In this document: one piece after another, positions 13,617 to 45,719 of the stretch
Layout: the number at the start of each line of letters is the position of its first letter
How positions within the stretch are numbered: position 1 is the first letter of the stretch
Assembly (NCBI GenBank): GCA_964551735.1
Contig: CAZKEF010000017.1
Coordinates: 31,007 to 95,006, forward strand
Length of the DNA: 64,000 bases
DNA from: an uncultured Anaerolineales bacterium
GTDB taxonomy: Bacteria; Chloroflexota; Anaerolineae; CG2-30-64-16
Direction: 5' to 3'
Position numbers and translations under genes: made by a program
The notes under the pieces: generated by a model
Told to the model about the DNA's origin: nothing
Databases searched by the model: none
Seen by the model: the letters and a program-made list of their open reading frames with translations, nothing else

Positions 13617-13706
13617 GGCGGTCGCCGGATCTGCGGTTTGACAGCGCCGAAGATCTGGTTACAGTATAAGCAGCTTAGACTAAGCTACTTAGGCGAAAGA
13701 GATACG

Positions 13707-15158
13707 ATGCCTCATAAGTTTGTCGGCCGGGGGCGCGATGTTGCCGAGCTGAACGCGATTTTGGCTCGTCCAGGCGCGCAGCTCGTCCTGGTTTACGGCC
13801 GCCGGCGGGTGGGCAAAACCACGCTGCTCCTGGAATGGGCCGCGCAAACCGGCCGGCCCCTCATCTACTGGGTCGCGGCTCGCGATACGCCCGCGCTGCT
13901 CCGCCAGGGCTTCATGCGGAGCGTGTGGCAATGGGCGCACCCCGGCAGCCAGGCGGTCCCCCGCTTCGAGTCCTGGCGTGAGGTCTTCGCGGCAACAGCC
14001 GACCTGATCGGGGATCGGGCTGCGATCCTGATCCTGGACGAGTTCTCCTACGCCGCCGAATCCGACCCTGCCCTGCCCTCGCACTTACAGGCAGCCTGGG
14101 ATCATCTGTTCAAAGCGCGCAACCTCGCCATTGTGCTGGCCGGCTCGCACATCGGCTTGATGGTGGAGCAAATGAGCTACAACGCGCCGCTGTATGGCCG
14201 ATTCACCGCGCAGCTTCCCGTGGGGCCGCTGGCCTTCCCCGCCCTGGCTGACTTCTTGCCCCATTACACCGCGGCGGAACGCGTTGCCGCCTACGCCGTT
14301 GTCGGCGGCATCCCGGCCTACCTGGAGCAGTTCGACCCGGCCCAAAGCTTGAGCGCCAATCTGAAGGGCCTCTTCATGCGGCGCACCGGCCTCTTCCGCA
14401 GCGAGCCGTTCATCCTGATCGGCGATGTGATCCGGCGCGAAACCCAAACCTACGAAGCGATCCTCAAGGCCATCGCCGCGGGCCAGCGCACCCCCAGCGA
14501 CATCGGCGCCATGGTGGATCGCACCAGCGGGTATCTCAGCCCCTACCTGAAGAACCTGGAGGCGCTGCACCTGGTGGAACGCCGCGTCCCGGCCACGGTG
14601 CCGCGCGACCAGCGCCAAGCCAGCCGCAACAGCCGGTACCACCTGGCGGATCCCTATTTGCGCTTCTATTTCCGCTTCATCGCGCCCAACCTCGACCTGG
14701 TGGAGCAAGAGCTATCCGACATGTTGTGGGAGCGCATCGGCGAGCAATTCCGCGCGTTCGTCGGCGCCACCGCGTTCGAAGGCCTGTGCCGTGAGTGGGT
14801 TCGTGTCCAGGCGCGAGCCCGGCGACTGCCCCTGACCCCGGAAGCGATCGGCAGCCACTGGTCGGCCAATGCGCAAGTGGATGTGGTCGCGATCAACTGG
14901 CACGACCGGGCGATCCTGCTGGGCGAGTGCAAGTGGGGGGAGCAACCGGCCGACCGGGGCGTGATCCGGGAATTGGTGGCCAAGGCGCCGAAGGTCGTGC
15001 CGGCCGCGGGCGAGGGCGAGACCGCATGGCAGGTACACTACGCCTTCTTTGCGCGCGCCGGCTTCACCGATGCCGCCCGCGCTGAGGCGGTGGGGCTGGG
15101 CGCGCGGTTGGTGGATCTGGAGAGGTTGGATGGGGATTTGCGGCGCAGAGTAGGGTGA
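13707..15158 (+). CDS. AAA+ ATPase (Arch_ATPase N-domain) with C-terminal DUF234
   Basis: ATG at 13707 after GAAAGAG RBS; Walker A VYGRRRVGKTT, Walker B ILILDEFS; C-terminal region resembles DUF234 of archaeal-type ATPases. Confidence 0.6.
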   Translation: MPHKFVGRGRDVAELNAILARPGAQLVLVYGRRRVGKTTLLLEWAAQTGRPLIYWVAARDTPALLRQGFMRSVWQWAHPGSQAVPRFESWREVFAATADLIGDRAAILILDEFSYAAESDPALPSHLQAAWDHLFKARNLAIVLAGSHIGLMVEQMSYNAPLYGRFTAQLPVGPLAFPALADFLPHYTAAERVAAYAVVGGIPAYLEQFDPAQSLSANLKGLFMRRTGLFRSEPFILIGDVIRRETQTYEAILKAIAAGQRTPSDIGAMVDRTSGYLSPYLKNLEALHLVERRVPATVPRDQRQASRNSRYHLADPYLRFYFRFIAPNLDLVEQELSDMLWERIGEQFRAFVGATAFEGLCREWVRVQARARRLPLTPEAIGSHWSANAQVDVVAINWHDRAILLGECKWGEQPADRGVIRELVAKAPKVVPAAGEGETAWQVHYAFFARAGFTDAARAEAVGLGARLVDLERLDGDLRRRVG

Positions 15159-15206
15159 GGCTGGCGCGAGTTGCTATCCCTCGCTGATACGCTGGCCGGG
15201 TTCGCA

Positions 15207-15258
15207 GAGGCGAGACGGAGCAGGCGGATAATGTGACGGGGGTGGTGGTGGGGAGACG
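15207..15258. repeat. direct repeat copy 2 (intergenic, at left edge of low-GC island)
   Basis: ggcgagacggagcaggcggataatgtgacgggggtggtggtggggagacgggg, about 90% identical to 13565-13616. Confidence 0.55.
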
Positions 15259-15308
15259 GGGAAATCAGTGATCCTGACCTGACTCTCAACACCTCAACCG
15301 TCGGCCAG

Positions 15309-16064
15309 TCAAGGATAGCATTGAGCGATAAAAGCTTTGTCTGTTTCGGACAGTTCGCTGTTCCATGCTATCTCTGTCCCGTCAAGCGTCCAGCGCTTGG
15401 GTATTGGATACACCATAATCGACTTCGGGTCAAACTGAGTGAATTGAGTCTGAGTAAACATATACCTGGCAAGCACGTTCTCACGAATAGTATACTCATC
15501 CCAGTTGTTCGGTGGGCCAGACAGGTCTTTTATCACAGCTTCTTCATTCCATTTCATACCAGAAGCAGGACTCTGGTGTTCATGAATTAAGCCCAGAGCA
15601 TGACCGAACTCATGCAGCACCACCCGCGAAAACTGTGCATCCACAGAGTCAGGTTTCAACCCACTAAGGTTCATTGTAGGTTGACTAAGCGGGACATCAA
15701 CAACCTCCATACCAACATAGGATGACGAAGGCTGATCGGACCTAAACGAGATGCGGATGTCCGCATTTGGGTAATAATCGTAACGGAATTCGAATCTGAG
15801 GTTCGCGTACTGAAGCCACTGCCTGGCGCAGACTTCTACCTGCTTTCGGACGCTCATGCTGCCGCCAATGAAGGTCACTCTTAGAAGTCGCCCAGGCTTC
15901 CAAAACCAGTTTTCGAGCCCGGCAGCCTGCAGAGGTGAAAGCATATTTCGCGGGTTTTCCGAAATCGCAAGTTGGCGTGCAAGGACATAGTCCGCATGAT
16001 GCACTGAGCGGTCAATACAAATGGACATTGATAACCTAGACATAGCACTTCTCACTTCCCCCAT
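15309..16064 (-). CDS. astacin-like metzincin zinc metalloprotease, no signal peptide
   Basis: HEFGHALGLIHEH (HExxHxxGxxHE astacin-type zinc site) and downstream Met-turn SIMVYP (astacin SxMHY); N-terminus hydrophilic, so predicted cytoplasmic. Confidence 0.55.
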   Translation of the reverse strand: MGEVRSAMSRLSMSICIDRSVHHADYVLARQLAISENPRNMLSPLQAAGLENWFWKPGRLLRVTFIGGSMSVRKQVEVCARQWLQYANLRFEFRYDYYPNADIRISFRSDQPSSSYVGMEVVDVPLSQPTMNLSGLKPDSVDAQFSRVVLHEFGHALGLIHEHQSPASGMKWNEEAVIKDLSGPPNNWDEYTIRENVLARYMFTQTQFTQFDPKSIMVYPIPKRWTLDGTEIAWNSELSETDKAFIAQCYP

Positions 16065-16121
16065 CCCATCGAATGTCGTGCCGAGAATGAGCTTCTTCTT
16101 CTGTGTATCTGGGTCTTCACA

Positions 16122-17297
16122 TCAACGATAGGGTAAGTCATCCCTGATTCGAGTTAGGATTGCTGTGATTGGAATACCTTCATTGCCCCTGATATAGGGT
16201 AGCAATGAAGGGCTAGGTGCTTCCGTTTCGCCATGATGCAGCGCAATAATGTCGCCATCCTTATCAAATACAGGTGCGCCGGAAGCGCCGTGCTCAGTAT
16301 GAGTCAAGTACTGCATCCGTCTCCTAGTAGTATCTATGATCAAGTTGTGGAATAAGGCGATCTTCTGGGGCTTGTATCCAGGGTACTGGACAACGAAAGC
16401 CACGCCATACAGTTTGGGAGTCTTCGGGACGAGTCGCACATATCCTATCTCCGGCATGTCTCCAGGTCGTCCCTCGATTCTTAGTAATGAAAAGTCAAGG
16501 TTCTCAGTATCACTTGAACGTACCACATGCTCAACCCAATACTCATACCCCTGCTCGAGAACTCCCTTGCTGCTATATCTGAACCTAAAGCGAACGCGAT
16601 ATGCACGCTGTTTAGCGTTCTTTGGCACAACATGGTTGCAGGTCAAGACTAGATCGGGAGCAACGGCGAATCCTGTCCCAACTGACCTTCCGTCGGGTTC
16701 TTCGATGCGGCAAGTGGCACTGCTGATTCGGCCTACCGACTCTGAAAAGGCAACTTCTAGGAGGTTGACCGTCTGTTGCCATTGACTAAGCATCGTATCT
16801 GGGGCCAATGAGCCATACCACGGGTAAGGAGCACGAGGTTGGTGCCAACCCAGATCAAAGAGCCTATCAGTGGGAGAGATCACTGGAAGAGGGAGTTTGA
16901 CTAGATTGGCAACCTTCTCTCTGAACCGAATCTCGCTGAAATCCTCTTTGAATATCACATCGCCATGATAATCTATCCTGACAGCAGTAGTTAGTTCGTA
17001 ATCTTCGCGCCGCGGGCAAAGACGTGCTCCGTCGGTCACAACCACAACCTTGATACCCCGGTTCACCGCTTTATCAATCATTTCGATGCAGTCTTGACGA
17101 ATCCGCGTATGATTATCTTCCCGATCGTTCAATTGTACATTAAGTACGGCAAGGTCAAGGTGCTCGGAGCGAATCAGACTAATGGCCTGAGATCGCTCGC
17201 TTTCACACAGGATTTCATGACCTAACGGCTCAAGAGCGTCATGAAGCTTATCCATGCGCCATTGTTGGTCATTATCAATGATTAGAATACGCGCCAT
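16122..17297 (-). CDS. response-regulator receiver domain fused to trypsin-like (S1-family) serine protease
   Basis: REC features: IIDND acidic pocket, D in HLDLAVLNV, VVVVTDG, K in IFKEDF. Protease triad: LTCNHVV (His), NLDFSLLRI (Asp), GASGAPVF (GDSGGP-like Ser). Confidence 0.6.
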   Translation of the reverse strand: MARILIIDNDQQWRMDKLHDALEPLGHEILCESERSQAISLIRSEHLDLAVLNVQLNDREDNHTRIRQDCIEMIDKAVNRGIKVVVVTDGARLCPRREDYELTTAVRIDYHGDVIFKEDFSEIRFREKVANLVKLPLPVISPTDRLFDLGWHQPRAPYPWYGSLAPDTMLSQWQQTVNLLEVAFSESVGRISSATCRIEEPDGRSVGTGFAVAPDLVLTCNHVVPKNAKQRAYRVRFRFRYSSKGVLEQGYEYWVEHVVRSSDTENLDFSLLRIEGRPGDMPEIGYVRLVPKTPKLYGVAFVVQYPGYKPQKIALFHNLIIDTTRRRMQYLTHTEHGASGAPVFDKDGDIIALHHGETEAPSPSLLPYIRGNEGIPITAILTRIRDDLPYR

Positions 17298-17330
17298 ATC
17301 AATCTCCGTCAGTTGTTGTCACAAAAAACG

Positions 17331-18152
17331 CTATGATACGACGCGGAGGCCGCTGAGTGCATTCCGTATTGCATCCCGATATCTAACTGGGGAGAACTTA
17401 TGCTTATCCACATAGTAGCACGCCCCATAGTTTCGATATGACTCGCGTATATGCACTGGCGTACCATGTCCGGAGCTAACAATAACCTGAGTAAACCTTC
17501 CCCGTGCATGGTCCAATTCTCTAAGTAGACTCATCAAATACAACCCTTCATAATTCGACTCATCATTTTCAGCTAATCTCAGATCACAAATAACCAGATC
17601 GTAACTTTGCTCCGTAAGGCTCTTCTCCGCTGCAGTGCGACTCGTAGCCGTGTCTATCCTAGCCATTGTTGGTAACGAATCCACCAAGGTCTTAAGCCAG
17701 GTTGGATCATCATCAATTACCAAGACAGTGCCGCTAGAAGTCACTAGAAGTTCACGTCTGTTTGTAACAAGGCGCACAGCGGCGAAAGACTGATCGACCA
17801 GAGCTACGAGTTGATCCTCGTCGTATGGTTTGCCTACACAGTCAAAGGCGCCTTGCTGAAAGACAGATCCCAACTCCTCCAGAGGAGGGTCAACGGCATA
17901 CAGTACAACAGCAGGTATACAGCGATCGGATAACGCGCTCAAGAACCAACGATCCTGAGTTAATGTGTCAAAGTCAACCAGTGTTATAAGATGCTGCAGT
18001 GCGTCGCCTAGGGCATTGAGAATTGCTCGGGCGCTATCTGGCGACGAGGCTGTGGCAACTTGATAGTCTGCCTCGCGCAGTGTAGTGCTGGCGAAATCCA
18101 GCCAATCCTTCTCAGAGTCAACGATCAGCACTTGACTGGCTTCCGTGTTCAT
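17331..18152 (-). CDS. tandem receiver-domain (REC-REC) response regulator without output domain
   Basis: Two REC units: VLIVDSEKD...LVDFD...K and VLVIDDDP...DLVICDLRL...VIVSSG...K. Confidence 0.6.
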   Translation of the reverse strand: MNTEASQVLIVDSEKDWLDFASTTLREADYQVATASSPDSARAILNALGDALQHLITLVDFDTLTQDRWFLSALSDRCIPAVVLYAVDPPLEELGSVFQQGAFDCVGKPYDEDQLVALVDQSFAAVRLVTNRRELLVTSSGTVLVIDDDPTWLKTLVDSLPTMARIDTATSRTAAEKSLTEQSYDLVICDLRLAENDESNYEGLYLMSLLRELDHARGRFTQVIVSSGHGTPVHIRESYRNYGACYYVDKHKFSPVRYRDAIRNALSGLRVVS

Positions 18153-18154
18153 AT

Positions 18155-26220: not shown

Positions 26221-28648
26221 CCTTCTCCTGTTTCGCGCAAGGCAGCTTCACCACGAAGGCAGTCCCGATGAACATCAGGCTTGCTGCCAGGCTCAGGCTC
26301 CCGCCCGTCATCTCGACCAGGTTCCGGCTAATATAAAGACCCAGACCGGCGCCATCGGGGCGTGTGGTGTATCCCATTTCGAATACCCGTTCGTGAAGTT
26401 GTCCGTGAATTCCGGGGCCACTGTCCATCACGGCAATTTCCAGGGGACGTCCTGTGAAACCCTCGATACGTCGTGTTTGAACTATGACCTGCCGAACACG
26501 CGCCAAATCAGCCTGTTCGCCCTGTTCTGCATGGAGTTGTCCAAAGAACTGCATCTTCAATTCGATCTGTTGGATGGAGTTAAGTATCAAATTGGTCAGT
26601 ATTTGCTCAAGTTGCGGCCGGATGGCCAATGCCTTTGGGAGTCCAGCGGAAAGATCTGTGGCAAACATGATTCCTGCAGCGCGCGCCCTGTGTTCCAATT
26701 GACGCAGCACGCCGGTAACCGCTTCATTGACATTCACCAGATCGAGCTCGTGTCGAGCCAGGCGTGTATAACCCTTCACCAAATCCGAAAGACTTCCTTG
26801 CTGTTGTGCAAGCCTATGAACTGAGTCTGCGATCTTTTGTCCCCGTGCCTGATCTGGAGCGGCCTGTGCCTTGTCGCAATATCCCTGTAAGAGCTTTGTC
26901 TCCCAGTTGAGGCCATCGAGCTTGTGGTTCAATTCATGCACCAGGTTCGCCAAGAGTTCACCTCGAGAACAGTGTTCCTGATAACCGCGCATGTGATCGA
27001 GGAGTATCGCGTTCTCAATTGTAGTTGCAAGAAGCCCTGCCCCCAATCGTGCCCGATCGACCTGTTCACGCCCCTCCCTGCTTTTTGTGGAGAAGCCCAG
27101 GATGCGTTCGTCAAAGAGAAAGAGGGCGTGTCGAGTCAGCCGTCCAGGAATCAGGAGCGGCAACCCAAAACAGGAGCGATAACGCAAGTCTGGAAACAGA
27201 TTGCGAAGGCGTGCTTCCTCATAACGAAGCGCCTCAGTGAACCGAAATTCCTGTTCTTCCTCGATCACATTACGTGCCGGACTGTGATATAGGGTGCCCA
27301 CTGCCCTTTCCGCTATCCCCGGAGGTACTGGCGGATCCGCGGCCAGAATCGAAACGATCTTGCTGGCTGTATCCAACTCCAACACCATCGCCTGGCTGAT
27401 CTGGATGGTCTCCCGTAATGTCATCAACGCGTCCAACAAACGCTCATGCAGCGACCGTTTCGCCAGGGATTTAAGGCCAACTCGTTCCAAGAACCCAGAT
27501 TGACTGCCACCAGGCGACGAGCGCGATGCTATGACTCTGGTCCAATAACCCGTACATAACCTGTGCACCCAATCAACGATTTCTTCGTCGGTCTTATCTA
27601 TCAAAGGATCCGTGGGCTTTTCGATCTCCGCAACAACAGGCAACTCAGACCCGTTGATGATGACCGGTGCTTCTGCTCTGTTGAGTTCCGGGTCGTGCGA
27701 TGGCGGGGCGAAATCCAAATCCAGCTTTTCGACGCGCATCCTGCTGACAAACAGCACTGGTAGACCAGGCCTGGCAGTACGCAGCCGAGTGGCCACAGCC
27801 GGTCCAAGCTCACCATCCAAATACACATCAACGATAGCTAATCCGTAGGAATGGCCCCCTCTAACTAGCTCTAGGGCCTGATCCCCGGAACTCAAACCAT
27901 CGACCTCAACGCCGAACTCTCTCTTCAGGGCCTCACAGATACGTTCTCGATCCTGCACATCATCATCCACCACCAAGAAACGATGAGGCCGTGGAATAGG
28001 AGGCAAAAACCGATACGTTTCGGTTAGCCCTTCTTGGTCAGATGAACCGTCCTGATGAGGCAAAGAGGTTGGCTGGGGTTCGGGAGTACGGAGCAAATCT
28101 GCCAGCGCGTGACTCTGCTCCTGAACGCTGGCGAGGCGCCTAAGCTCACCCCACAGGCTGAGGTCAATTTGCCTCAGCGTGGGACTCATCTTCGTTACGA
28201 GGCCGCGCACCCGGTCCCCGATCCAGAGCAGATCCTCCACCCCCAAATCGCGCAAGATGGGGAGATCATCTCGCCAAACTACCGCATCAATCCCCGGTTC
28301 CAACTGGACAAAAGCGCGATCATGTTGGACGTTTACCACCTCGCCTTCAACGCTTTGACCAATTCGATAGCGATACCTCACACCAACATCGTCCCAAGGG
28401 TCAGCGGCCTGGCGCAGGCTCAGAAACACCAACCCACGCTGCGGATCATCTTCCAAGACAATTGCATCGAATTCCGAGCCTACCTGGGGCATTGTTGGCA
28501 TAACGCCGATGCGCCGATCCCACGACAATTCTTTCCGCCGGATGAAACCGGCGCGATTGCTCTTGAGAATCTTGACCCAGACACCCGTGTCTCGGATTTG
28601 GGCAACAGCAACTCGCACGCGAGTTGATGGTAACATAAATGACGCCAT
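26198..28648 (-). CDS. hybrid sensor histidine kinase: two N-terminal S1-like RNA-binding domains + REC + GAF + HisKA + HATPase_c
   Basis: S1-like OB folds: VRVAVAQIRDTGVWVKILKSNRAGFIRRKELSW... and IGQSVEGEVVNVQHDRAFVQLEPGIDAVVWRDDL...IGDRVRGLVTKM; REC (FLVVDDDV...LAIVDVYL); H-box HELNHKL; ATP lid VMDSGPGI...GLGLYISRNLVEMTGGSL. Confidence 0.6.
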   Translation of the reverse strand: MASFMLPSTRVRVAVAQIRDTGVWVKILKSNRAGFIRRKELSWDRRIGVMPTMPQVGSEFDAIVLEDDPQRGLVFLSLRQAADPWDDVGVRYRYRIGQSVEGEVVNVQHDRAFVQLEPGIDAVVWRDDLPILRDLGVEDLLWIGDRVRGLVTKMSPTLRQIDLSLWGELRRLASVQEQSHALADLLRTPEPQPTSLPHQDGSSDQEGLTETYRFLPPIPRPHRFLVVDDDVQDRERICEALKREFGVEVDGLSSGDQALELVRGGHSYGLAIVDVYLDGELGPAVATRLRTARPGLPVLFVSRMRVEKLDLDFAPPSHDPELNRAEAPVIINGSELPVVAEIEKPTDPLIDKTDEEIVDWVHRLCTGYWTRVIASRSSPGGSQSGFLERVGLKSLAKRSLHERLLDALMTLRETIQISQAMVLELDTASKIVSILAADPPVPPGIAERAVGTLYHSPARNVIEEEQEFRFTEALRYEEARLRNLFPDLRYRSCFGLPLLIPGRLTRHALFLFDERILGFSTKSREGREQVDRARLGAGLLATTIENAILLDHMRGYQEHCSRGELLANLVHELNHKLDGLNWETKLLQGYCDKAQAAPDQARGQKIADSVHRLAQQQGSLSDLVKGYTRLARHELDLVNVNEAVTGVLRQLEHRARAAGIMFATDLSAGLPKALAIRPQLEQILTNLILNSIQQIELKMQFFGQLHAEQGEQADLARVRQVIVQTRRIEGFTGRPLEIAVMDSGPGIHGQLHERVFEMGYTTRPDGAGLGLYISRNLVEMTGGSLSLAASLMFIGTAFVVKLPCAKQEKDEHHEQD

Positions 28649-28819
28649 TAATACAGGACCTCTTAAGTCATTTGAATCCCCATGCGGTGGAGAACCACTC
28701 GAAACGCCGAGAAAAAATCTCAGGTCAGAACCCGAATTTCAGAAGTTGCATAAACAGAACACATGTGCTAACCTTGGCTCTAGATCCATCCTGCCACGCC
28801 CGACACTTGGAGGTACAAA

Positions 28820-29062
28820 ATGGCACTAGACATGTGGTTCAAGGAAGATATCAGAAACGTACTCCTATCACTCAACCTGGTTTCAGCAGCCACAAGTCGG
28901 TGGGTTCAAGACGCACGCTTGGATGCCTATCGTCACGGTTATGAAGAGGCGATCGCTGCGGTGGCGCTGGCTTTTGGCCTACCGCCACGTTCGGTGCTCG
29001 GAAAAGATAGAGAGCAAGGCAGCGAATACGACGTGTCTTGGGACCTCAAACTACTGCCCTGA
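28820..29062 (+). CDS. small hypothetical protein (80 aa), divergent from island operon
   Basis: Good RBS GGAGG 7 nt upstream of ATG; no recognisable motif. Confidence 0.3.
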   Translation: MALDMWFKEDIRNVLLSLNLVSAATSRWVQDARLDAYRHGYEEAIAAVALAFGLPPRSVLGKDREQGSEYDVSWDLKLLP

Positions 29063-29077
29063 CATGTGGCTTGCCAG

Positions 29078-29914
29078 TCAGGGAGCGGTCTCAGGTATCA
29101 CGCCGCTGTCAAAGCGCAGGCTGTTCATGACTGTTAGCAGGCTCGGCCACAGTTGATCCCATGCGGCGCTATCGCACATCGCTTCAATAGCGTAAAGACG
29201 CCCTTCATAGCCAACCACTGCTTGATACCACCGCATTTCTTTCTGGCTTAGGCTATCCCTACCCTGTATGTAACGTTCGAGGCAAGCCAGCTTTTCCTTT
29301 CCAACAGTACATGCTTTTGGAAGCCCGACGTCAGCGCCGGAATGAAGACCACTCAGGATGACTTCTTTTCGCTGATCGAGTTGTTTCAGCAACGCTTCGG
29401 CATCAACAGCCGATACTGTATTCAAATAGCAAATGCGATACTGCGCGCGGCTCCACTGCACATCTTCTTGGTCATTGGCAATGTTCGAGAAGACCGTGCC
29501 CCGACAGTCACTGGCTCTTTCCTCCACTTGAAAGGACTGGGCAAGCTGGTCTCTGCCAATGCTGAAGTAATAGAGCTTGTTGACATACGACTGGTTCGCG
29601 ACCTCTGGTGTAGGCGTCTTCAGGGCTGTTGTCACAGGGGTGTTCTCTACAGGCAGTCTGTCCTGGCAACCCCAGGCTGTCAATAAGAGAATACCAAGGG
29701 CCACCACCGTAAGCAAGGCCATGATGAGCGAGGGACTCGACAGACGATCGAGGTTCTTGCCCGACGCCAGGGCTAACTGTCTTAGGTATTCTTTTCTTGA
29801 GGTAGTCACGGTTTCCTCCTTACGACGAATACTCGGCTGCTGCACTAGGTGACATATGGTTGCTGGGGACGCCGTTACGAGGTCGTAATCATGTTTTGCC
29901 TTGGCGGGCCTCAA
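29078..29914 (-). CDS. hypothetical exported protein / putative lipoprotein (alternative start about 29722 giving signal peptide MALLTVVALGILLLTAWGC)
   Basis: Single hydrophobic segment followed by Cys, then a Cys-containing soluble domain with no recognised motifs. Confidence 0.4.
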   Translation of the reverse strand: MRPAKAKHDYDLVTASPATICHLVQQPSIRRKEETVTTSRKEYLRQLALASGKNLDRLSSPSLIMALLTVVALGILLLTAWGCQDRLPVENTPVTTALKTPTPEVANQSYVNKLYYFSIGRDQLAQSFQVEERASDCRGTVFSNIANDQEDVQWSRAQYRICYLNTVSAVDAEALLKQLDQRKEVILSGLHSGADVGLPKACTVGKEKLACLERYIQGRDSLSQKEMRWYQAVVGYEGRLYAIEAMCDSAAWDQLWPSLLTVMNSLRFDSGVIPETAP

Positions 29915-31235
29915 CTATTCTGACCTCGATCACATTTATGCCCCATTGCTGAGAACGCCGATCAAGGTTCGTTTGTAGTTCCTGACAGACCGTACTGACT
30001 TTTGTCGTTTTATCACAGAAGAGATTCTTGAACTCATAGCTCGGTAGTACGTCATATAGTGCCATCGAAATGTCTTCTTTGAGCCGCTTTTCCCATGCAC
30101 GCTTCAATTCGGGAGGCTCAAGAGGGTTGTCCCCTTTCTTATCATGTTCTCTGGACTTCGGAGCCATTATCTCTTGTGCCATGCTAACCGCTTTTCTTAT
30201 GGCCTCTGCCATCAGTTCCTTATCAGTGGTTTCTTGGATTCCGTAGGAGAACGATACTTGGATTTCTACATAAGTACTTGGTCCAGTTGCAACCTTCTGC
30301 TTTTGTGATTGGGTGTAATGATAGCAACTTGGAACAAAAGCCGCGATTTTATCAAATGGACGGCGAGCAAATGGAGTACGACTGAACGAAGGCAGGAGGT
30401 CTCCCCTTCTTTGTAAGACAGTGTAACAGCCAGGACGCACCGGCACTCGAAGCAGCCTATCGAAAACTAGATATAGAACCCATGTGGAAAAACCTAGAGT
30501 AAGTATCATTACCAATCGATCGATGCTCAAACCCATAAGGCTTACAACGACTAGTCCAAAGAGGATAAGTGTAAGGAACAGACTTCCAACGCGAACAACC
30601 CAGGGCAATGTAAGCCCAGCTTTTGGAACTTGCGTGGAAGTACCGTTTGCATTTGATCCATCCGTAGCGGAAGTTACCCCTGGCGCTGATATATCTTCAG
30701 TTGACCCAGGTTTGTCTGAAGATGGTGTCTCTGCCGGCATCTGTTCGATCTCCAAATTATGCCTGATTAGCTTGTCAGATAGTATCTGCCCCCGAAATCC
30801 TGCGCACAATTCCTGCGCGACATCACCTACCTTGGCCTCCTGTCTCTGCCATGCATAAATCAGCCCACAGGCGTAGAGTGCCACATTAGAGTTATAGCCA
30901 TCGAAACCAGTTGAAAATGCCTCCTTTGCGTCAAGATAGTGAAGTAAAGCACCTGCGAAATCTCCCATGGCATGGTGACAAATGGCAAGATACATGGTAA
31001 TGAGACCGCGCGCAGACTGGCTTGCCCCATTAAATCCTTGGTAACCGTACGTACGCTGCAACGCCTTAATAAGCAACTCCTGTGCCGTGAGGTAATCCCC
31101 TTCTTCGATTTTTTCCTTGCCTTCCTTAAGATACTGTGCCAACATTCCATATCCAGATAGGGAAACGACGGATAACAGGCTCAAGATATCCTGCACATCG
31201 GTTTTGTATGCTAGTATCCTCTCGTTTGTCACCAT
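29889..31235 (-). CDS. TPR-like N-domain, two TM helices, C-terminal SPFH/band-7 domain protein
   Basis: C-terminal ...WGINVIEVRIVEA resembles SPFH terminal GIEV..V.I motif; middle hydrophobic stretch LFLTLILFGLVVVSLMGL. Confidence 0.45.
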   Translation of the reverse strand: MVTNERILAYKTDVQDILSLLSVVSLSGYGMLAQYLKEGKEKIEEGDYLTAQELLIKALQRTYGYQGFNGASQSARGLITMYLAICHHAMGDFAGALLHYLDAKEAFSTGFDGYNSNVALYACGLIYAWQRQEAKVGDVAQELCAGFRGQILSDKLIRHNLEIEQMPAETPSSDKPGSTEDISAPGVTSATDGSNANGTSTQVPKAGLTLPWVVRVGSLFLTLILFGLVVVSLMGLSIDRLVMILTLGFSTWVLYLVFDRLLRVPVRPGCYTVLQRRGDLLPSFSRTPFARRPFDKIAAFVPSCYHYTQSQKQKVATGPSTYVEIQVSFSYGIQETTDKELMAEAIRKAVSMAQEIMAPKSREHDKKGDNPLEPPELKRAWEKRLKEDISMALYDVLPSYEFKNLFCDKTTKVSTVCQELQTNLDRRSQQWGINVIEVRIVEARQGKT

Positions 31236-31289
31236 GAAGCAACCTCATCTCGCTAAGTCATCACGCAAAAGATAAGACCCACACAAGGC

Positions 31290-32711
31290 CTAACTGATGG
31301 CATTGCCCACGATTGACTCTTTTGTCTTCTGGATTAGGGCAAGAGAATCGTTCGGCAACAAAATCTTGGTTGCCGGATCACTAGCCATCTTCTCCAATGT
31401 CTCCAAGAAGCGGAGCGACAATAAATACGCAGCAGTATCTCGGCCAGACAAATTCAAAGTTCTGAAGGTAGCTGCCATTTGCTCAACAAGCTGTTTCTGG
31501 GCCTGTGCCCAAGCAACCTCTTTGAGCTTGAGAATCACAGCTTCAGCCTCACCTTTACGGATCATTGCTTCGCGCTGATTCTGAGCTACGCGCACATTCC
31601 ATTCAGCCAGCCAAGTTTCCAGAAGACGATCTTCAGACTCCTTAGGGATTTTGATGCGATTGATATCTACGGAACCGACAACCACCCCCATGAGTTGTTT
31701 AGTAACCTTGTTCATCTCATCAGCCAATATCTTTTTTAGATTAGTCCGAAACGCATCCGAGACAGGAATTATCTCGTCCAGGTCATAGCGCCCTATGACA
31801 TCGCGCGTTGATGTCTCGGCAACTGAGCGAACACCGCCACGCCAATCCGCGCCACTTGGACTCCAGATATTCTTTCGAATAACATCTTCGTTGTATAAAA
31901 ACTGGCCGTCTTCAATGCACTCATCCTTTGGCTCAGAATCAACCTTATGAAAGACCAAGATCTCGAACTCGTCAATCAGGATCTTGTCTTTAGTAGCCAC
32001 CTTTTCTACAATCAGTTTTTCAGTTCGCGTATACAACGGCACCACCATACTGATCCGCTCAAACGGCCTCAGCATCGTGATCCCCCGTCCCACCACACGC
32101 GAGAGCCTGCCGCTGACCTCTAGAATGACCGCATGCCCTTCCTGAACGAGCAAGATCCCCGGCCCGCCAAACCGCGCCAGGCTGCTCCCGCTCTCCCCGC
32201 GCACCTCGGCCTGGCCGTTGCTCACGATCCACGTGCCGCGGTTGATGCCCAGCAGGATGCTGACGGCGCTCATCGCGGCTTCCCACTCGTGTCCTTTGTA
32301 GTTTTCGTACTGGCTGTACAACCCCGGGCCGGCCACGAGACCGTAGGGCAGCAGCAGTACGACAGCAACCAGAACCGCGACCAAGATCCCGCCGATCAAC
32401 GACCAAAACAGGATCAGGCTGGGGCTACCGAACAGGAACCCAAGCACTGTGTTGGCCCCGGCTTCACCTTGGGGTGCCAGCCCGGCAAGCAACGTGCCGA
32501 TAACCCAACGCATGAGGAGCGCAAAGGTCAGGAACACGGCCAGTAAGAAGATGAATCGCGGTGTCACCTGGACGCGTCGCGAAAGGAACGGCAGCTTGAA
32601 TGAGAACGCGACCAGGTACAGCACCACGAACAAGATCGCGCCCATCCAGCCCAGCTTGACGGCCAGGAAAGCGAAGGCGAGGGTGAGGACTATCTCGATC
32701 AGCGTGCGCAT
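31290..32711 (-). CDS. polytopic membrane protein with SPFH/band-7 (flotillin/HflK-like) domain and C-terminal coiled coil
   Basis: About 4 N-terminal TM helices; SPFH-like block GPGILLVQEGHAVILEVSGRLSRVVGRGITML...; Ala/Glu/Lys-rich C-terminal helix. Confidence 0.45.
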   Translation of the reverse strand: MRTLIEIVLTLAFAFLAVKLGWMGAILFVVLYLVAFSFKLPFLSRRVQVTPRFIFLLAVFLTFALLMRWVIGTLLAGLAPQGEAGANTVLGFLFGSPSLILFWSLIGGILVAVLVAVVLLLPYGLVAGPGLYSQYENYKGHEWEAAMSAVSILLGINRGTWIVSNGQAEVRGESGSSLARFGGPGILLVQEGHAVILEVSGRLSRVVGRGITMLRPFERISMVVPLYTRTEKLIVEKVATKDKILIDEFEILVFHKVDSEPKDECIEDGQFLYNEDVIRKNIWSPSGADWRGGVRSVAETSTRDVIGRYDLDEIIPVSDAFRTNLKKILADEMNKVTKQLMGVVVGSVDINRIKIPKESEDRLLETWLAEWNVRVAQNQREAMIRKGEAEAVILKLKEVAWAQAQKQLVEQMAATFRTLNLSGRDTAAYLLSLRFLETLEKMASDPATKILLPNDSLALIQKTKESIVGNAIS

Positions 32712-32811
32712 CGCCGCCCTTTCCGAGATGAGATGGCCGGGATCGGCCGCGAGGACTACCGGGGCGCACGGAAACGGCAGGGGCTTGCTTGGTCACAGGC
32801 TATCCCGGCCC

Positions 32812-32857
32812 GCAATAAGAAACGCGGCTACAGGAACCGGAGTTTACTGTAGCCGCG
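32812..32857 (-). terminator. rho-independent terminator downstream of LTD-protein gene (minus strand)
   Basis: Hairpin cgcggctacag-N13-ctgtagccgcg followed on minus strand by TTTCTTATT. Confidence 0.5.
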
Positions 32858-33071
32858 CGCAAGCCGCGATGCGATCAACGATCAGGTGATAGGATAAGCA
32901 CAACGATAACGGATGCTCCATAGATAGCCTTCCGTTTCCTGTGAGCGCCCAAAGCAATAGAACATGTGTTCTTGTATCTACAATTACATATCATATCACA
33001 AGGTTTTTCGGTATGCAAAAAACTCCAAACGCCATGTATCTTTCCCTCCGGAGTTGTCGCGCGGCGCGAAG

Positions 33072-36000
33072 TCAAAAAGGGGACCCCGTCACCGGCAGCC
33101 ACGCAGGCGGCGGGCTGACGTCGGCCCGGAAGCGCGGGAGCAACCGGTAGCCGCCGACCCACGGCGGGCCATCGAACGCGTACTGCCCCACCACCCCCTG
33201 CGCAACCCAGAATTCACCGAGGTTGACATACGGCCGCCGCCAGGGCAGGTCGCCGGGGAAGTAGATGCGCGCGGGGCCGCTGCCATCGTCCAACACCAGC
33301 GCCTGGCGCTCGAACTTCGTAACGCGGCCGACGATCAGCACGAGTTGGCCCTGGTGCGCCTCGCCCATGTCGCCGGTGGCGATGCGGGCAGCGATCGGGA
33401 GTTGGCCGGCGCCCAGGCGGGTCAGGTAGCCGGGGTTGGGGACCGAAAGCTCGGCCTCGCCGCGGAAGTCGCGCGTCCAGCCGGTGGCCTGCACCACGTC
33501 ACCCACTGCCAGGGCCGGGTAATCGCCGCTCCGTAGGTAGACCTTGATGCCGCCGGTCGCATCCTGGAGGTAGATGGTGCGCGGGATCAGGCCGGGCGGG
33601 TAGACCACCGCGCCGGTCACCGTGACGCGCGTGTCGTCCGGCGCGGCCAGGGCCGCGGCAATGGCGGCAGCACCGGACATGGGCGGTGCGCCGCCGCCTG
33701 CGCCTGGCACAGGGGTTGGCCGCAGACGGTTGGGCTGCCCCACGGTCACGTCGCACTCCGTGGTCCAATAGCCGCCGCCGTCCACGCTGCGGCAGAAGCT
33801 GCGATCCTCGCCCGGGCCATTGGTGTACGCGAACTCGTCGGCGGTGACCCCGTCGGGCCGGCGCAGGATGACGTGGTCACGCCGGTCGCCCAGGGACAGG
33901 CCGGTGGCGCGGCGGAAGAGGAGCAGGAAGCTGCGCGGCCAGATCACGGTGCCCTGGGGGATGGTGTACGTCTTGGTGTCGTCCAGCACGGCCCACCCGC
34001 CCAGGTTGGCCGGCGCCGTGCCCGCGTGGTACAGCTCAATCCACTCGTCGTTGAAGCTGGCCTGGCCGTTGCCATCCCAGTCTCCGGCGACCGGGTCCGG
34101 CAGAATCTCGTTCAGCGTGATGCCGGCCGGGATGGGCGTGGCCGTGGCCGTCGCGGTGGGCGTGGGGGTTGGGGTGGGCGCGATGTTCGGGCCTCCCGGC
34201 GACGGCGCGTAGGTGTCGGTCCACGCGCCGGCGCCGTCCACCGTCCGGCTGTACGAGCGGTCGGGCTGCGTCTTGCTGTAGGCGAACGCATCCACCTCGA
34301 CGACATCCGGGCCCAGCAGGCGCACCGTGTCGCTGGTGTTGTTCAGTACGAGGCCGCTTTGTGCCTGAAACACCAGCAGGAACGCGCCCGGCGCCAGGGT
34401 CACGCCTGCCGGGAAGACGTAGGGGGTGCTGCCGCCGTCGGCGCTGTCGTCCAGCAGCCAGCCGGCCAGGTCTACCGCCGCCGCGCTCCGATTGTAGACC
34501 TCGATCCATTCGTCGCCAGCATCGGCTGTGCCATCCCCGTTCCAGTCCACCGCGCTGGGGGCGGGCAGGAACTCGTTCAGCCGGAGCGCATCGGGGTCGT
34601 AGATGACCGGCGTCGCGGTGGGCGTCGGCGTCGGCGCCAGGTTGGGGCCGCCCGGCGACGGTGGGTAGCTGTCCGTCCACGCGCCCGTCCCATCCACGGC
34701 CCGGCTGTAGCTGCCGTCAGGCCGCGTGGTGGTGTAGGAGAAGTCATCCACCTCCGCCCCGTCCGGGCCGAGCAGGCGGACGGTATCGGTGTCGTTGTTC
34801 AGCGCCAGGCCGCTCTGAGTGCGGTAGATGACCAGGAAGCCGCCGGGAGCCAGGGATGCGCTGGCCGGGAAGACAAACGGCTTGCTGCCGCCGTCGGCGA
34901 TATCGTCCAGCGCCCAGCCGGCCAGGTTGACCGGGGTCAGGCCCAGGTTGTACAGCTCGATCCACTCATCGGCCGCGTCCGCCGTGCCGTCGCCGTCCCA
35001 GTCCACCGCGCCTGGCGCGGGCAGGAACTCGTTGAGGCGGATCGCGTCAGGGTCGTAGATGACCGGTGTCGCGGTAGGCGTCGGGGTCGGCGGGACGGTC
35101 CAGGTGGGCGTCGTGGTGGGTGTGCGCGTCGACGTCGCGGTGCGAGTCGCGGTGGGCGTGCGCGTCAGCGTCGGGGTGCGGGTCGCGGTGGGCGTGCGCG
35201 TCAGCGTCGGGGTGTAAGTCAGTGTCGGCGTGAATGTGGGTGTCGGCGCGGGAGCGATGTTTGGGCCGCCCGGTGACGGCGGGTAGGCGTCAGTCCATAC
35301 GCCGGCGCCATCCACGGTCCGGCTGTAGCTGGTGTCCCGCTTGGGGCCGCTGTACGCGAAGGTGTCCACCGCGCTGCCGTCCGGGGCCAAAAGCCGCGCG
35401 GTGTCCGCGTCCTGGTTCAGCGCGACCTTGGTCTGCGAGCGGTAGAAGACCCGGAAGCCGCCCGGCGCCAGCCAGGTGTCCGCGGGAAAGACGTAGGGCT
35501 TGCTGCCGCCTTCGATGTCATCCAGCGCCCAGCCGCCCAGGTCCATCGCTTCGGCGCCCAGGTTATAGATCTCGATCCACTCATCTTCCGCATCCAGGGT
35601 CCCGTTCCCGTCCCAGTCCACGTCATAGGGGTAGGGCAAGACCTCGTTGAGGCGCACAGCGGACAGCGGGGTGGGTGGGGCCGTCGCTGCGGGTGTGCCG
35701 GTCGGCGTGGGGGTGCCCGTCACCGGCAGGACAGTCGGCGTGTGCGACAGCGTAGCCGTCGGCAAGCCGGTGGGCGTGGCGGTGTCGGTGGCCGCGGGTG
35801 TGCCGGATGGCGTGGCCGTGCCGGTCGCGGTGGGGATCGGGGTCAGGCTCGCGGTCGCCGTCGGCGTGACGGTGGGCGTGCCGGGGTGGGGAGCTGTGGG
35901 TGTATGGGTGTGTGTGGATGTCGGTGTTGGGGTCAACATTGTGCCCGGCGCGCCCGGGTTGGGTATCGCCTGCGCCAGCCAATCGTCGCGCGTGTCGGTG

Positions 36001-37301: not shown

Positions 37302-37412
37302 CGGGACGGAAGGGGGGAACTTCCGGGTAGATTATATGCGAAGGGTCAAATCTCTGTCAAGAAGACATTTTTCGGCCTGGCCTCTCAATTTGCGCCCTTT
37401 CACTGTCTGCCC

Positions 37413-45690: not shown

Positions 45691-45719
45691 TTGACAAACG
45701 AACAAGTGTTCGCTATAAT
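45691..45719 (+). promoter_or_regulatory. sigma-70 promoter (TTGACA-17-TATAAT) with embedded LexA/Cheo-type SOS box CGAACAAGTGTTCG
   Basis: ttgacaaacgaacaagtgttcgctataat read directly; GAAC-N4-GTTC palindrome lies in spacer; 50 nt upstream of lexA start. Confidence 0.65.

Follow-up and report, generated by a model that had tools for sequence, protein, structure and literature searches.

Background

Homology-facilitated illegitimate recombination has been described in Acinetobacter, Pseudomonas stutzeri and Streptococcus pneumoniae, all of which are naturally transformable. Replacement flexible genomic islands, a concept defined among strains of one species, are exchanged through homologous recombination of flanking sequence, and clusters for giant proteins are named as typical of them (Lopez-Perez, Martin-Cuadrado and Rodriguez-Valera 2014, PMC4033161). 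We compared these systems and classical genomic islands with a locus in a 64-kb stretch of a Chloroflexota (probably Anaerolineae) chromosome of ~67% GC, henceforth the window. Here, a low-GC block (15272-33071) lies between two convergent genes, one encoding a PP2C/SpoIIE phosphatase (PP2C) and the other a giant secreted protein with lamin-tail domains (LTD) (Table 1). Related loci in other genomes are given L numbers.

The block resembles classical genomic islands in that its GC, codon usage and oligonucleotide signature are atypical, its edges are sharp, its cargo is accessory and a relative has an empty site. Unlike them, it is not beside a tRNA gene, lacks an integrase or transposase and flanking direct repeats of its own, and is composed of two units that are arranged variably among genomes. 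It shares with replacement flexible genomic islands the lack of hallmarks of illegitimate mobile-element insertion, a position adjoining a giant exposed protein gene (LTD), great divergence between genomes of the LTD-adjacent versions, and mosaic identity, in which lineages that otherwise diverge share a near-identical tract. However, the present comparison rests on cross-genus metagenomic relatives, the empty site in one relative represents additive and not replacement behaviour, and the cargo consists mostly of predicted cytoplasmic signalling proteins and not of surface glycosylation genes. By analogy with the bacteria named above, homology-facilitated illegitimate recombination may have operated in this organism. 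The likeness lies in a putative one-sided homologous anchor, the lack of repeats for the island and the partial duplication of an anchor gene end, as around the ATPase gene next to PP2C; the difference is that the anchor crossovers here are deduced from identity patterns alone.

Table 1 Features of the locus, with positions in the window
Feature	Position	Strand	Remarks
PP2C/SpoIIE phosphatase with STAND-like N-terminus and GAF (left flank)	10599..13616	+	Pfam SpoIIE 2.4e-48, GAF; GC3 0.90, host composition
Direct repeat, copy 1	13546..13612	+	Functional PP2C 3' end (...AFVGETEQADDVTGVVVRRG*)
DUF234/ATPase_2 gene	13638..15158	+	Pfam DUF234 5.6e-20, ATPase_2 1e-18; GC3 0.83, host-like
Direct repeat, copy 2	15190..15271	+	Frameshifted relic of original PP2C 3' end; alignment with 2-nt indel
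Left junction of low-GC block	15272..15308	.	Between relic stop codon and stop codon of first island gene; ML change-point 15262
Astacin/matrixin-like zinc metallopeptidase (unit B, last gene)	15309..16064	-	HEFGHALGLIHEH motif, SIMVY Met-turn; Pfam Peptidase_M10 9e-8, Astacin 1e-4
Receiver-like N-terminus fused to trypsin-like serine protease	16122..17297	-	Pfam Trypsin_2 3e-19
Double receiver-domain protein	17331..18152	-	Pfam Response_reg, 2 stretches
Cytoplasmic histidine kinase, five GAF domains	18155..21382	-	Pfam GAF_2 x5, HATPase_c
Mini-AlaRS paralogue, catalytic and tRNA-recognition part only	21445..22863	-	Pfam tRNA-synt_2c 1.2e-57, covers 2-436 of 552
Receiver domain followed by six GAF domains	22894..26220	-	Pfam
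Recombination tract (3.3 kb)	25400..28690	.	82-94% nucleotide identity to L001, ~60% either side; starts at unit A/B border
Hybrid kinase: two S1 RNA-binding domains, receiver, histidine kinase (unit B, first gene)	26198..28648	-	Pfam S1, Response_reg, HATPase_c
Small 80-aa gene (MALDMWFKEDIRN...)	28820..29062	+	Conserved; sole plus-strand gene of the island
Putative lipoprotein/secreted protein (unit A, gene 3)	29078..29914	-	
Membrane protein, weak SPFH-like C-terminus (unit A, gene 2)	29889..31235	-	Pfam Band_7 0.0045
SPFH/Band-7 membrane protein (unit A, gene 1)	31290..32711	-	Pfam Band_7 3.7e-13
Predicted LexA (SOS) box GAACATGTGTTC	32960..32971	.	SPFH promoter region; exact match
Candidate promoter TTTGCA-18-TG-TATGAT	32990..33019	-	AT-rich patch beside LTD stop; consensus match only
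Giant secreted protein, six LTD domains, PT-rich linkers (right flank)	33072..37301	-	Pfam LTD x6; GC3 0.86
Second LexA box	45700..45711	.	Upstream of host lexA gene (~45.77-46.42 kb)

Base composition and edges of the block

The drop in GC content that an earlier note had read from this DNA is real. In 1-kb windows, GC ranges from 0.58 to 0.73 in the flanks (mean 0.669, sd 0.035, n=46) and from 0.466 to 0.556 between 16 and 32 kb (mean 0.513, n=16), the difference between the means being 4.5 host sd. A maximum-likelihood two-breakpoint fit delimited the low-GC segment to 15262-32063 (GC 0.512 vs 0.668 elsewhere, log-likelihood gain 638). Codon usage and tetranucleotide signature differ as well: GC at the three codon positions is 0.607/0.408/0.521 in the island vs 0.687/0.500/0.856 in the host, and the tetranucleotide correlation r with the host reference is 0.50-0.73 inside vs 0.82-0.91 outside. 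GARP amino acids make up 0.267 of the island proteins vs 0.353 in the host. The codon-position values of the island fit a genome of ~50-54% GC at equilibrium, and its GC3 has no excess of the kind that would signal amelioration.

At the left edge, GC shifts within ~200 nt, and the change-point is 3 nt from position 15259, where the earlier note had put it. The right edge, which had been placed at the LTD stop, is less simple. An AT-rich promoter patch (32.88-33.04 kb, GC 0.48) does abut that stop at 33072, but a 0.8-kb GC-rich stretch (GC 0.58-0.67, GC3 0.82) intervenes between the patch and ~32.06 kb. This stretch consists of the SPFH 5'UTR and the initial ~215 codons of that gene, in which GC3 is 0.82 for codons 1-215 and 0.51 for the remainder. 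As described before, all the large genes of the block (10 out of 10) are on the minus strand and one small ORF is not.

Two units and their mosaic relationship to other genomes

The low-GC block is composite. Unit A comprises the genes for the SPFH protein, an SPFH-like protein and a putative lipoprotein together with the small divergent gene, and unit B is a seven-gene operon that begins with the S1-domain hybrid kinase and ends with the astacin-like metallopeptidase. In the nearest relative, L001, the genes from SPFH through the GAF kinase are arranged as in the window; the units are convergent in L020 and L005, and unit A occurs without unit B in L040 and L004. Both the position and the orientation of unit B vary between genomes, and the SPFH end of the block follows LTD in L020, L022 and L040. 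This corrects the earlier view of the island as a single unit.

We computed nucleotide identity to L001 in 300-nt blocks. It is 0.52-0.75 over unit A; along unit B, it is 0.82-0.94 (28.69-25.4 kb), then 0.62-0.69, 0.86-0.88 and finally 0.63-0.66. The protein identities are 62/50/50% for unit A vs 90/78/77% for unit B. Recombination is indicated because identity to L001 jumps from ~0.6 to 0.82-0.94 at the border of the two units. In each of the seven genomes with visible flanks (the window, L004, L005, L006, L020, L030 and L040), the cluster has a lower GC than its host, and low GC alone is thus no clock for recent transfer. In L001, the closest relative for unit B, the 5' part of the SPFH gene is GC-rich too, which suggests that its host is probably GC-rich as well. 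No donor is identifiable among the matches, the best of which reach 50-62% amino-acid identity for unit A.

An empty site in a relative

The metagenomic contig L042 (JGI 3300076802), whose RpoD is 91% identical to that of the window, is collinear with the window on either side (right, ~11 kb; left, ~7 kb). The earlier note had considered whether the PP2C and LTD genes adjoin each other in relatives; in L042 they are direct convergent neighbours, 91 nt apart, with no ATPase gene between them, and its PP2C protein is 62% identical to that of the window. The segment 13617-33071 is therefore an insertion/deletion difference, with two parts: the GC-rich DUF234 ATPase gene and the low-GC block. The same picture would result from a gain in the window and from an exact deletion in the lineage of L042.

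The RpoD-LTD-SPFH synteny is common to the window and L040 (RpoD 87%), and the LTD-SPFH adjacency is found in three other genomes (L020, L022 and L040). This recurrence indicates that the linkage is old, and the LTD/SPFH junction was therefore probably either imported with the island or present before the island arrived. In a comparison weakened by repeat paralogy and by the fast evolution of giant LTD proteins, the C-terminal part of the window's LTD is 61-70% identical to the SPFH-linked LTDs of L020 and L040 and 49-57% to that of L042, a ranking that runs against closeness by RpoD (91% for L042 vs 87% for L040); in the N-terminal 300 aa, by contrast, L042 (54%) and L041 (58%) rank above L040 (43%).

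The left edge had also been tied to a 52-nt direct repeat. The repeat is real (13566-13604 and 15212-15250, with none expected by chance), its similarity spans ~67 nt with one 2-nt indel, and copy 2 touches the edge. However, these are the only copies within the window, with no third one at or near the right island end, and they bracket the ATPase gene, not the island. Copy 2 marks the former PP2C end beside the LTD-PP2C spacer. Flanked on both sides by the duplicated PP2C 3' end and missing in L042, the DUF234 ATPase gene is an insertion of its own.

Origin of the block

We consider it probable that the block is foreign accessory DNA, in two units, that was brought by recombination into the LTD-PP2C spacer, and that the ATPase gene came separately. 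Horizontal acquisition, as proposed in the earlier note, is supported by the empty site in L042, by the atypical composition, codons and tetranucleotides, and by the tract of 82-94% identity in surroundings of ~60%; the polarity would be a gain here rather than a loss in L042. Entry would have occurred by recombination without an element-encoded integrase, most likely through a homologous anchor in the LTD gene on the right side and an illegitimate join beside the PP2C stop on the left. The switch in the ranking of LTD identities and the conserved promoter/LexA-box motif of the LTD-SPFH spacer speak for the LTD anchor. A one-sided event of the same kind, anchored in PP2C, may have brought the ATPase gene and left the duplicated PP2C 3' end behind. 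The source of the cargo could be a pool of GC-poorer alleles (0.50-0.56) that recombine among Chloroflexota lineages and in which units A and B co-occur.

It is possible, with a distinctly smaller likelihood, that the cluster is an old, vertically inherited resident (RpoD-LTD-SPFH...), which L042 would have deleted and other relatives would have lost or moved elsewhere. A local process would then keep its GC low, the candidates being divergence too high for homologous recombination, so that GC-biased gene conversion does not occur, and weak codon-usage selection in rarely expressed, SOS-repressed genes. The synteny with L040, the LTD/SPFH adjacency and conserved promoter in L020 and L022 too, and the GC deficit in all seven genomes despite 41-62% amino-acid divergence are consistent with long residence, as is the association of recombination with raised GC3 that one paper reportedly describes for bacteria. 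Yet the GC3 gap of 0.34, together with shifted GC1, GC2 and amino acids, is far above the usual within-genome spread, and the genomes closest by RpoD (L016/L017, 95%, and L042, 91%) do not have the cluster beside rpoD. The jump from 60% to 94% identity to L001 points to a recent inter-lineage move of at least part of unit B, and the differing position and orientation of this unit also speak against a resident.

Integration into a gene classically leaves the 3' end of that gene as a direct repeat, and the left island edge touches copy 2. The block might accordingly be read as an integrative island, ICE/IME or prophage, or as the remnant of such a self-mobile integrative element, with the PP2C 3' end as its target and the 52-nt repeats as attachment sites, but we regard this as very improbable. 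The copies enclose only the 1.6-kb ATPase gene. Domain searches detected no integrase, transposase, relaxase, phage or conjugation domain in any protein of the island or the ATPase segment; we found no tRNA gene in the block, no repeat common to both of its ends, no relatives among viral contigs and only generic domain matches on plasmids, and the cluster flanks in L005, L020 and L040 contain no recombinases. The best reading is that the module is not a self-mobile element. An assembly or binning artefact, in which DNA of a ~51% GC organism was misjoined into a 67% GC contig, is hardly credible. The source is indeed a metagenome-assembled contig (NCBI, 120,344 bp) and the change in composition is abrupt, but two independent chimeric joins would be needed exactly in the 91-nt LTD-PP2C spacer. 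The junction of high-GC LTD and low-GC SPFH also exists in L020, a separate assembly of divergent sequence, the LTD-SPFH adjacency in two further assemblies (L022 and L040), and the promoter/LexA-box motif of the LTD-SPFH spacer is conserved in the window and all three. With the LTD/SPFH junction seen independently in three assemblies and with each flank unbroken in L042, an artefact is disfavoured.

A predicted SOS-controlled cassette in unit A

An SPFH cassette is not known to belong to any SOS regulon described so far. The motif GAAC-N4-GTTC is the LexA operator in Firmicutes and Actinobacteria, with variants in Chloroflexi (PMC4951493, citing Fernandez de Henestrosa et al. 2002, PMC135389). 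As in a LexA regulon, the window has the exact palindrome in the SPFH promoter region and the same motif before its own lexA; these are the only two exact matches in the 64 kb (32960 and 45700), and the second calibrates the motif because it precedes the host's own lexA. The lexA-linked box is at the same position in L018, L019, L041 and L042. The motif is kept before SPFH orthologues in many genomes, with an exact box at 11 out of 21 homologue loci vs a background of 0.025. These sequence patterns suggest that unit A is a membrane cassette under SOS (LexA-box) control and thereby a predicted member of the regulon.

The SPFH protein has 75 homologues (best 62% identity). The product of gene 2 is 50% identical to its L001 counterpart and 22-28% to others. 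That of gene 3 has no Pfam match, and its homologues lie behind the SPFH pair in L001, L004, L005, L020, L025, L027, L031 and L040. Judged by its conservation, the plus-strand ORF is a real gene, with orthologues in L001, L004 and L020 and a counterpart of matching size and position in L040. A LexA box with one mismatch accompanies it (28757), and boxes lie upstream of this gene in L004, L020 and L040.

Signalling and protease genes of unit B

The content of signalling, protease and SPFH genes is as described in the earlier note, with an AlaRS catalytic-domain paralogue in addition. Unit B may form a cytoplasmic phosphorelay with two proteases, the receiver-trypsin protein and the astacin-like metallopeptidase, as its outputs. 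The S1-domain hybrid kinase is 90% and the receiver-GAF protein 78% identical to L001.

The mini-AlaRS of Tupanvirus and the N-terminal fragment of E. coli AlaRS served as comparison systems (PMC10036535; PDB 3HXU family). The window's paralogue differs from them in its alanine-pocket residues, with E at E. coli D235 and V at G237 (PDB alignment) and a 4-residue deletion after R69; it is also embedded in a two-component operon and belongs to a distinct ~450-aa family, which scores well above canonical AlaRS. Because of these three features, it is probably not a housekeeping synthetase. Its score against TIGR00344 is 195 bits (cutoff 457).

The N-terminal region of the receiver-trypsin protein has no significant Pfam match and appears receiver-like on reading its sequence. 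This protein is 52% identical to its L020 counterpart, and the astacin-like metallopeptidase 70%.

Base composition and edges of the island

The low-GC block between the PP2C and LTD genes is a real genomic island. In 1-kb windows, GC content is 0.58–0.73 outside it and 0.466–0.556 from 16 to 32 kb. The island mean of 0.513 is 4.5 host standard deviations lower than the host mean (0.669, sd 0.035, n = 46 windows), and the drop is sustained through 16 consecutive windows. A maximum-likelihood two-breakpoint segmentation placed the low-GC segment at 15262–32063 (GC 0.512 vs 0.668 outside; log-likelihood gain 638). The tetranucleotide correlation with the host reference is 0.82–0.91 in the flanks and 0.50–0.73 inside the island. 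GC at codon positions 1/2/3 is 0.607/0.408/0.521 in island genes vs 0.687/0.500/0.856 in host genes, and the fraction of GARP amino acids is 0.267 vs 0.353. In base composition and codon usage the block departs from its host, as genomic islands do, and the compositional step described in the earlier note is borne out by windowed GC, segmentation, codon usage and tetranucleotide signature alike. By the regression coefficients reportedly given in the amelioration work of Lawrence and Ochman, which we used for the codon-position equilibrium, the island values are at equilibrium for a genome of ~50–54% GC. Because GC3 shows no excess, the island carries no amelioration signal.

On the left, the transition is sharp and lies where the earlier note had placed it. 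The right edge, which had been placed at the LTD stop codon, is less simple: an AT-rich patch (GC 0.48) does abut the stop at 33072, yet 32.06–32.88 kb is GC-rich. This stretch (32063–32880) consists of the 5'UTR and codons 1 to ~215 of the SPFH gene, which have host-like GC3 (~0.82), whereas the remainder of the gene has 0.51. For codons 1–200 the observed GC3 is 0.817, against 0.525 predicted by the amino-acid-specific codon usage of the island and 0.870 by that of the host, and amino-acid composition therefore fails as an explanation. Hydrophobic composition is not the cause either, because GC3 is 0.35 in the transmembrane segment that the next gene encodes. The N-high/C-low pattern is common to the related loci L001, L004 and L023 (L numbers denote related loci or contigs), with equivalent GC-rich stretches at 369–1000 in L001 and 3380–4000 in L004. 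It is weaker in L005, L006 and L030, missing in L022 and L025, and reversed in L027/L028. We considered a right insertion boundary within SPFH, as a recombination junction with host DNA, and rejected it, both because the pattern recurs in several homologues and because L042 (JGI 3300076802) places the whole gene and its promoter in the inserted DNA. The GC-rich stretch is thus a discontinuity within the inserted DNA and does not mark its boundary.

Elsewhere in the window, GC falls to 0.58–0.63 over the rpoD-methyltransferase-IF1-S21 stretch. Relatives L016–L019 and L040–L042 dip at the equivalent place. The decrease is mild and conserved, covers housekeeping genes and does not mark a second island. 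GC-rich palindromic REP/MITE-like elements (GGACGCGGACGAGCGCGGAT...ATCCGCGCTCGTCCGCGTCC) occur in host intergenic DNA at the four sites tabulated and nowhere inside the island.

Features of the window (start and end as positions in the window; genes of a unit in order of transcription)
Feature	Position	Strand	Description
G-rich repeats	4048-4170, 6222-6320, 11751-11833		8-nt period, GGAGCAGG-like; left flank, one within the PP2C low-complexity linker
REP/MITE-like elements	4882-4957, 5503-5582, 50239-50273, 62213-62288		GC-rich palindromes
PP2C gene	10599-13616	+	STAND-like/GAF/SpoIIE phosphatase
Direct repeat, copy 1	13566-13604		functional PP2C 3' end
Repeat-bracketed segment	13546-15271		holds the DUF234/ATPase_2 gene
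DUF234 ATPase gene	13638-15158	+	GC-rich, GC3 0.83
Direct repeat, copy 2	15212-15250		frameshifted relic of the PP2C C-terminal motif
Low-GC block	15272-33071		units A and B
Unit B	28648 down to 15309	-	seven genes: S1-S1-REC-histidine kinase; REC-6xGAF; 472-aa AlaRS catalytic-domain paralogue (21445-22863); 5xGAF histidine kinase; REC-REC; receiver-like N-terminus + trypsin; astacin/matrixin-like metallopeptidase
One-mismatch LexA site	28757		before the small gene
Small gene of unit A	28820-29062	+	divergent, 80 aa
Unit A	32711 down to 29078	-	SPFH/Band-7 membrane protein; membrane protein with weak SPFH-like C-terminus; probable lipoprotein
LexA box	32960-32971		SPFH promoter region
LTD gene	33072-37301	-	giant secreted protein, six lamin-tail domains
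Mild GC dip	37000-41000		rpoD-methyltransferase-IF1-S21
LexA box	45700-45711		~60 nt upstream of lexA
78-nt repeat	57172-57249, 58735-58812		internal hairpin

Gene content

The genes had been described as lying on the minus strand apart from one, and this stands: there are ten minus-strand genes, arranged in two tight operons, and a single plus-strand gene of 80 aa. The small gene is conserved in L001, L020 and L004, and L040 has a gene of the same size and position. Neighbouring genes of unit B overlap by up to 23 nt or lie at most 62 nt apart. No known anti-phage system was recognised among the island proteins with the PADLOC-DB 2.0 models. Weak matches were those of the trypsin domain to RT-Protease, LmuA and Avs1b and of the receiver protein to PDC-M60C; the other eight proteins gave none. 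At Rfam gathering thresholds, there are no RNA families in the window. An exact database look-up of the SPFH protein of the window returned no identical record. The six lamin-tail domains of the adjacent LTD protein are separated by PT-rich linkers, and its gene holds 300-nt internal DNA repeats that are 67–75% identical. Across relatives, LTD length ranges from 951 to 1627 aa and domain number varies widely.

The AlaRS-like protein of unit B aligns to N-terminal fragments of alanyl-tRNA synthetase in the PDB (E = 1.6e-39). It is not a canonical synthetase by the TIGR00344 model, of which it covers positions 1–420 of 847 with 195 bits vs a cutoff of 457. Residues corresponding to E. coli R69, W170 and N212 are kept, D235E and G237V substitutions (E. 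coli numbering) are present, and four residues are deleted after R69. Among 1.84 billion library representatives (50% clustering), the family comprises ~40 full-length proteins of ~420–480 aa that score ~200–430 bits, and canonical AlaRS proteins of 850–900 aa score ~150–185 bits. Some family members are tandem or fused (900–1500 aa). Tupanvirus has a mini-AlaRS that is functional (PMC10036535). That the pocket is altered in the protein of the window, and that its gene lies in this operon, speaks for a role outside housekeeping.

An empty site in a relative

The earlier note had proposed that synteny be compared in relatives for adjacency of PP2C and LTD. The right flank contains rpoD, and the nearest RpoD relatives are metagenome-assembled Chloroflexota, the few named ones being Anaerolineae or Chloroflexi. 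In L042 (RpoD 91%), RpoD and LTD are followed after 91 nt by genes on the opposite strand for PP2C, a STAND ATPase, a protein of 482 aa and a glycosyltransferase. By blastn, L042 is collinear with the right side of the window over 48646–37477 and 35194–33469 and with the left side over 13609–12126, 11762–9075, 8740–7437 and 7176–6433. LTD and PP2C are thus neighbours there, with both sides collinear, which is the empty site expected for a genomic island. This collinearity makes 13617–33071 an insertion/deletion difference relative to L042. The difference comprises the DUF234 ATPase gene as well as the low-GC block, since neither is present in L042. It may be a gain here or a precise loss in L042, and the sequences fit either.

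Other relatives differ in what they tell about the site. L016/L017 (RpoD 95%; GCA_034433275.1, GCA_037441915.1) and L018/L019 keep nucleotide synteny with the window between ~51 kb and 37470, the rpoD stop, where it ends; the cluster is missing beside rpoD in L016/L017. As neither LTD nor PP2C lies beyond the rpoD stop, L016–L019 are uninformative on the LTD-PP2C junction. L040 (RpoD 87%; ERZ25039459) has the order DUF4129-S21-IF1-methyltransferase-RpoD-LTD-SPFH-...-small ORF-LysM/PA14-Opp, which is the gene order of the window through unit A, without unit B.

The cargo in other genomes

We located related loci with the SPFH alignment as query; database homologues of the SPFH protein number 75, with a highest identity of 62%. 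The AlaRS-like protein as query gave no matches in scans of genome contigs and metagenome contigs. L001, the nearest unit B relative, has the gene order of the window from SPFH to the GAF kinase, with amino-acid identities of 62, 50 and 50% in unit A and 90, 78 and 77% in the first three unit B genes. In L020, LTD, SPFH, the SPFH-like gene, a hypothetical gene and the small ORF are followed by LysM/PA14 and amidohydrolase genes, and then by M12, receiver-trypsin, REC-REC and GAF kinase genes in convergent orientation. In L005, unit A is followed by a CHAT+PNP_UDP_1 protein, a GAF kinase and an AlaRS-like gene in convergent orientation, and the upstream flank has housekeeping genes and no recombinase. 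LTD lies directly upstream of SPFH in L022, and a DUF4143 ATPase takes its place in L004 and L038. Because arrangements vary among L001, L020, L005 and L040, units A and B are distinct blocks, often located together, and the island is not the single unit that had been assumed.

The nucleotide sequence is mosaic as well. In 300-nt blocks, window-L001 identity is 0.52–0.75 over 33.07–28.69 kb and 0.82–0.94 over 28.69–25.4 kb (peak 0.92–0.94 at 27.5–26.0 kb), so that the first jump falls on the unit A/B border. It is 0.62–0.69 at 24.5–23.6 kb, 0.86–0.88 at 22.7–22.1 kb and 0.63–0.66 at 22.1–21.5 kb. Within SPFH, the nearest relative switches by segment. Divergent SPFH cassettes (22–62% amino-acid identity) follow LTD in the window, L020, L022 and L040, and in L042 that site is empty; this comparison, of the kind used for replacement flexible genomic islands, is between lineages. 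The C-terminal two-thirds of the LTD protein is 58–70% identical to each of the SPFH-linked L020 and L040 proteins vs 49–57% to that of L042. In the N-terminal 300 aa the ranking is reversed (L040 43% vs L042 and L041 54–58%). This suggests that the 3' part of LTD may have moved together with the cassette, in a comparison limited by the repeat paralogy of LTD proteins.

In L005, a 1016-aa fusion of a CHAT protease and PNP_UDP_1 (13843–16893, minus strand) occupies the place of REC-REC, receiver-trypsin and metallopeptidase in the window and adjoins the GAF kinase and AlaRS-like genes as in unit B. This hints that the protease effectors are interchangeable.

A predicted SOS operator

The motif GAAC-N4-GTTC, which is the LexA operator in Firmicutes and Actinobacteria and has reported variants in Chloroflexi (PMC4951493), occurs at just two sites in the 64 kb, one in the SPFH promoter region and one upstream of lexA. 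Boxes are found at the position equivalent to the lexA-upstream site in L018, L019, L041 (GCA_034432655.1) and L042. The window, L020, L022 and L040 share a conserved motif in the LTD-SPFH spacer: a TG-extended -10-like element and, after it, AAGAAC-N4-GTTC. Among 21 homologue loci, 11 have an exact box within 400 nt upstream of SPFH and 5 more have a box with one mismatch (background 0.025 per 400 nt); the loci listed with a LexA operator upstream of SPFH are L004, L020, L023, L025–L028, L031 and L038–L040. The small gene, too, has boxes upstream in L004, L020 and L040 and a one-mismatch site in the window. A promoter and terminator scan gave no enrichment over shuffles, its sole noteworthy site adjoining the LexA box. 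Unit A therefore has an operator of the lineage type, validated on lexA itself and conserved before orthologues, and is predicted from these motifs to be an SOS (LexA)-regulated cassette. This would be an unreported member of the SOS regulon in Chloroflexota.

Proposed mode of entry

The left island edge had been noted to coincide with copy 2 of a 52-nt direct repeat. The repeat has two copies only in the window (~67 nt are similar, with a 2-nt indel), the second being a frameshifted relic of the PP2C C-terminal motif (ETEQADNVTGVVV...), and the pair brackets the ATPase gene and not the island, whose ends have no common repeat. Only chance 8–11-mers are shared between the island ends or found at the A/B border. 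ARAGORN detected no tRNA or tmRNA in the 64 kb, and insertion at a tRNA, as is usual for genomic islands, is thus not seen. Pfam and NCBIfam searches of the island proteins revealed no integrase, transposase, phage or conjugation domains. Viral contigs contained no relatives, and plasmids only generic kinase-domain matches. The island has neither the flanking direct repeats and mobility genes of many genomic islands nor the recombinase, att repeats at both ends and phage or conjugation genes of an integrative element or prophage. Since the PP2C-end duplication surrounds the ATPase gene alone, this gene represents an event separate from the low-GC block; it looks like a single-gene insertion of its own, anchored in PP2C.

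An assembly chimera, which could in principle juxtapose DNA of different composition, is very unlikely: both flanks are collinear in L042, where LTD and PP2C are adjacent, and the LTD-SPFH adjacency recurs in L020, L022 and L040. The data support the view that the island is of foreign origin and came in by recombination, with no machinery encoded by an element of its own. They also support the horizontally acquired accessory module of the earlier note, after three amendments: the repeat belongs with the ATPase gene, the right edge is less simple and the block is composite. We infer that the island would have entered through homologous recombination anchored on one side, in LTD, and an illegitimate join at the other end, and the ATPase gene by the same process anchored in PP2C. 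One-sided anchoring would account for the missing island repeats, the duplicated PP2C end and the LTD similarity pattern, and also for both insertions meeting in one 91-nt spacer.

Low GC is not peculiar to the window. GC3 in L020 is 0.85 for LTD and 0.49–0.56 for both units, with intermediate values for the genes between them; flank and cluster values are 0.77–0.84 vs 0.55–0.67 in L005 and mostly 0.72–0.86 vs 0.56–0.68 in L040, and the cluster is likewise GC-poorer in L004, L006 and L030. As the cluster is GC-poor wherever flanks are visible, although its proteins are 41–62% identical to those of the window, low GC is a persistent attribute of the gene set. Continual exchange from a pool of GC-poorer alleles would fit this, and so would a local process that holds GC low in the cluster. 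Composition alone would misdate the transfer, a caution for composition-based island finders.

The island is ordinary in kind, yet it is a clean case of gain without mobile-element machinery, with an empty site in hand, in a phylum that has received little study. Of more interest are the cargo and the GC-poverty that persists in it. We know of no described counterpart to the unit B architecture, in which a mini-AlaRS paralogue and an S1-domain kinase are linked to protease outputs. A speculative reading, which we consider improbable as a whole, is that the cargo is a new stress/conflict system of filamentous Chloroflexota, in which the SOS SPFH cassette is coupled to an RNA-/tRNA-sensing phosphorelay that drives interchangeable protease effectors. 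The relay would consist of the S1-domain hybrid kinase, the mini-AlaRS paralogue with its altered amino-acid pocket and the multi-GAF proteins; the effectors would be the receiver-trypsin and astacin-like proteins in the window and the CHAT-nucleosidase fusion in L005. Continual inter-lineage exchange would keep the cluster GC-poor and mosaic, like defence and surface loci, and would make it look newly acquired in every host.

Repeats elsewhere in the window

Two other repeat families were observed outside the island. The G-rich repeats with an 8-nt period are those of the left flank. The copies of the 78-nt repeat are 82% identical and lie directly upstream of two consecutive genes, for an FAD oxidoreductase and a ferric-reductase-like protein, and may be a shared regulatory leader.
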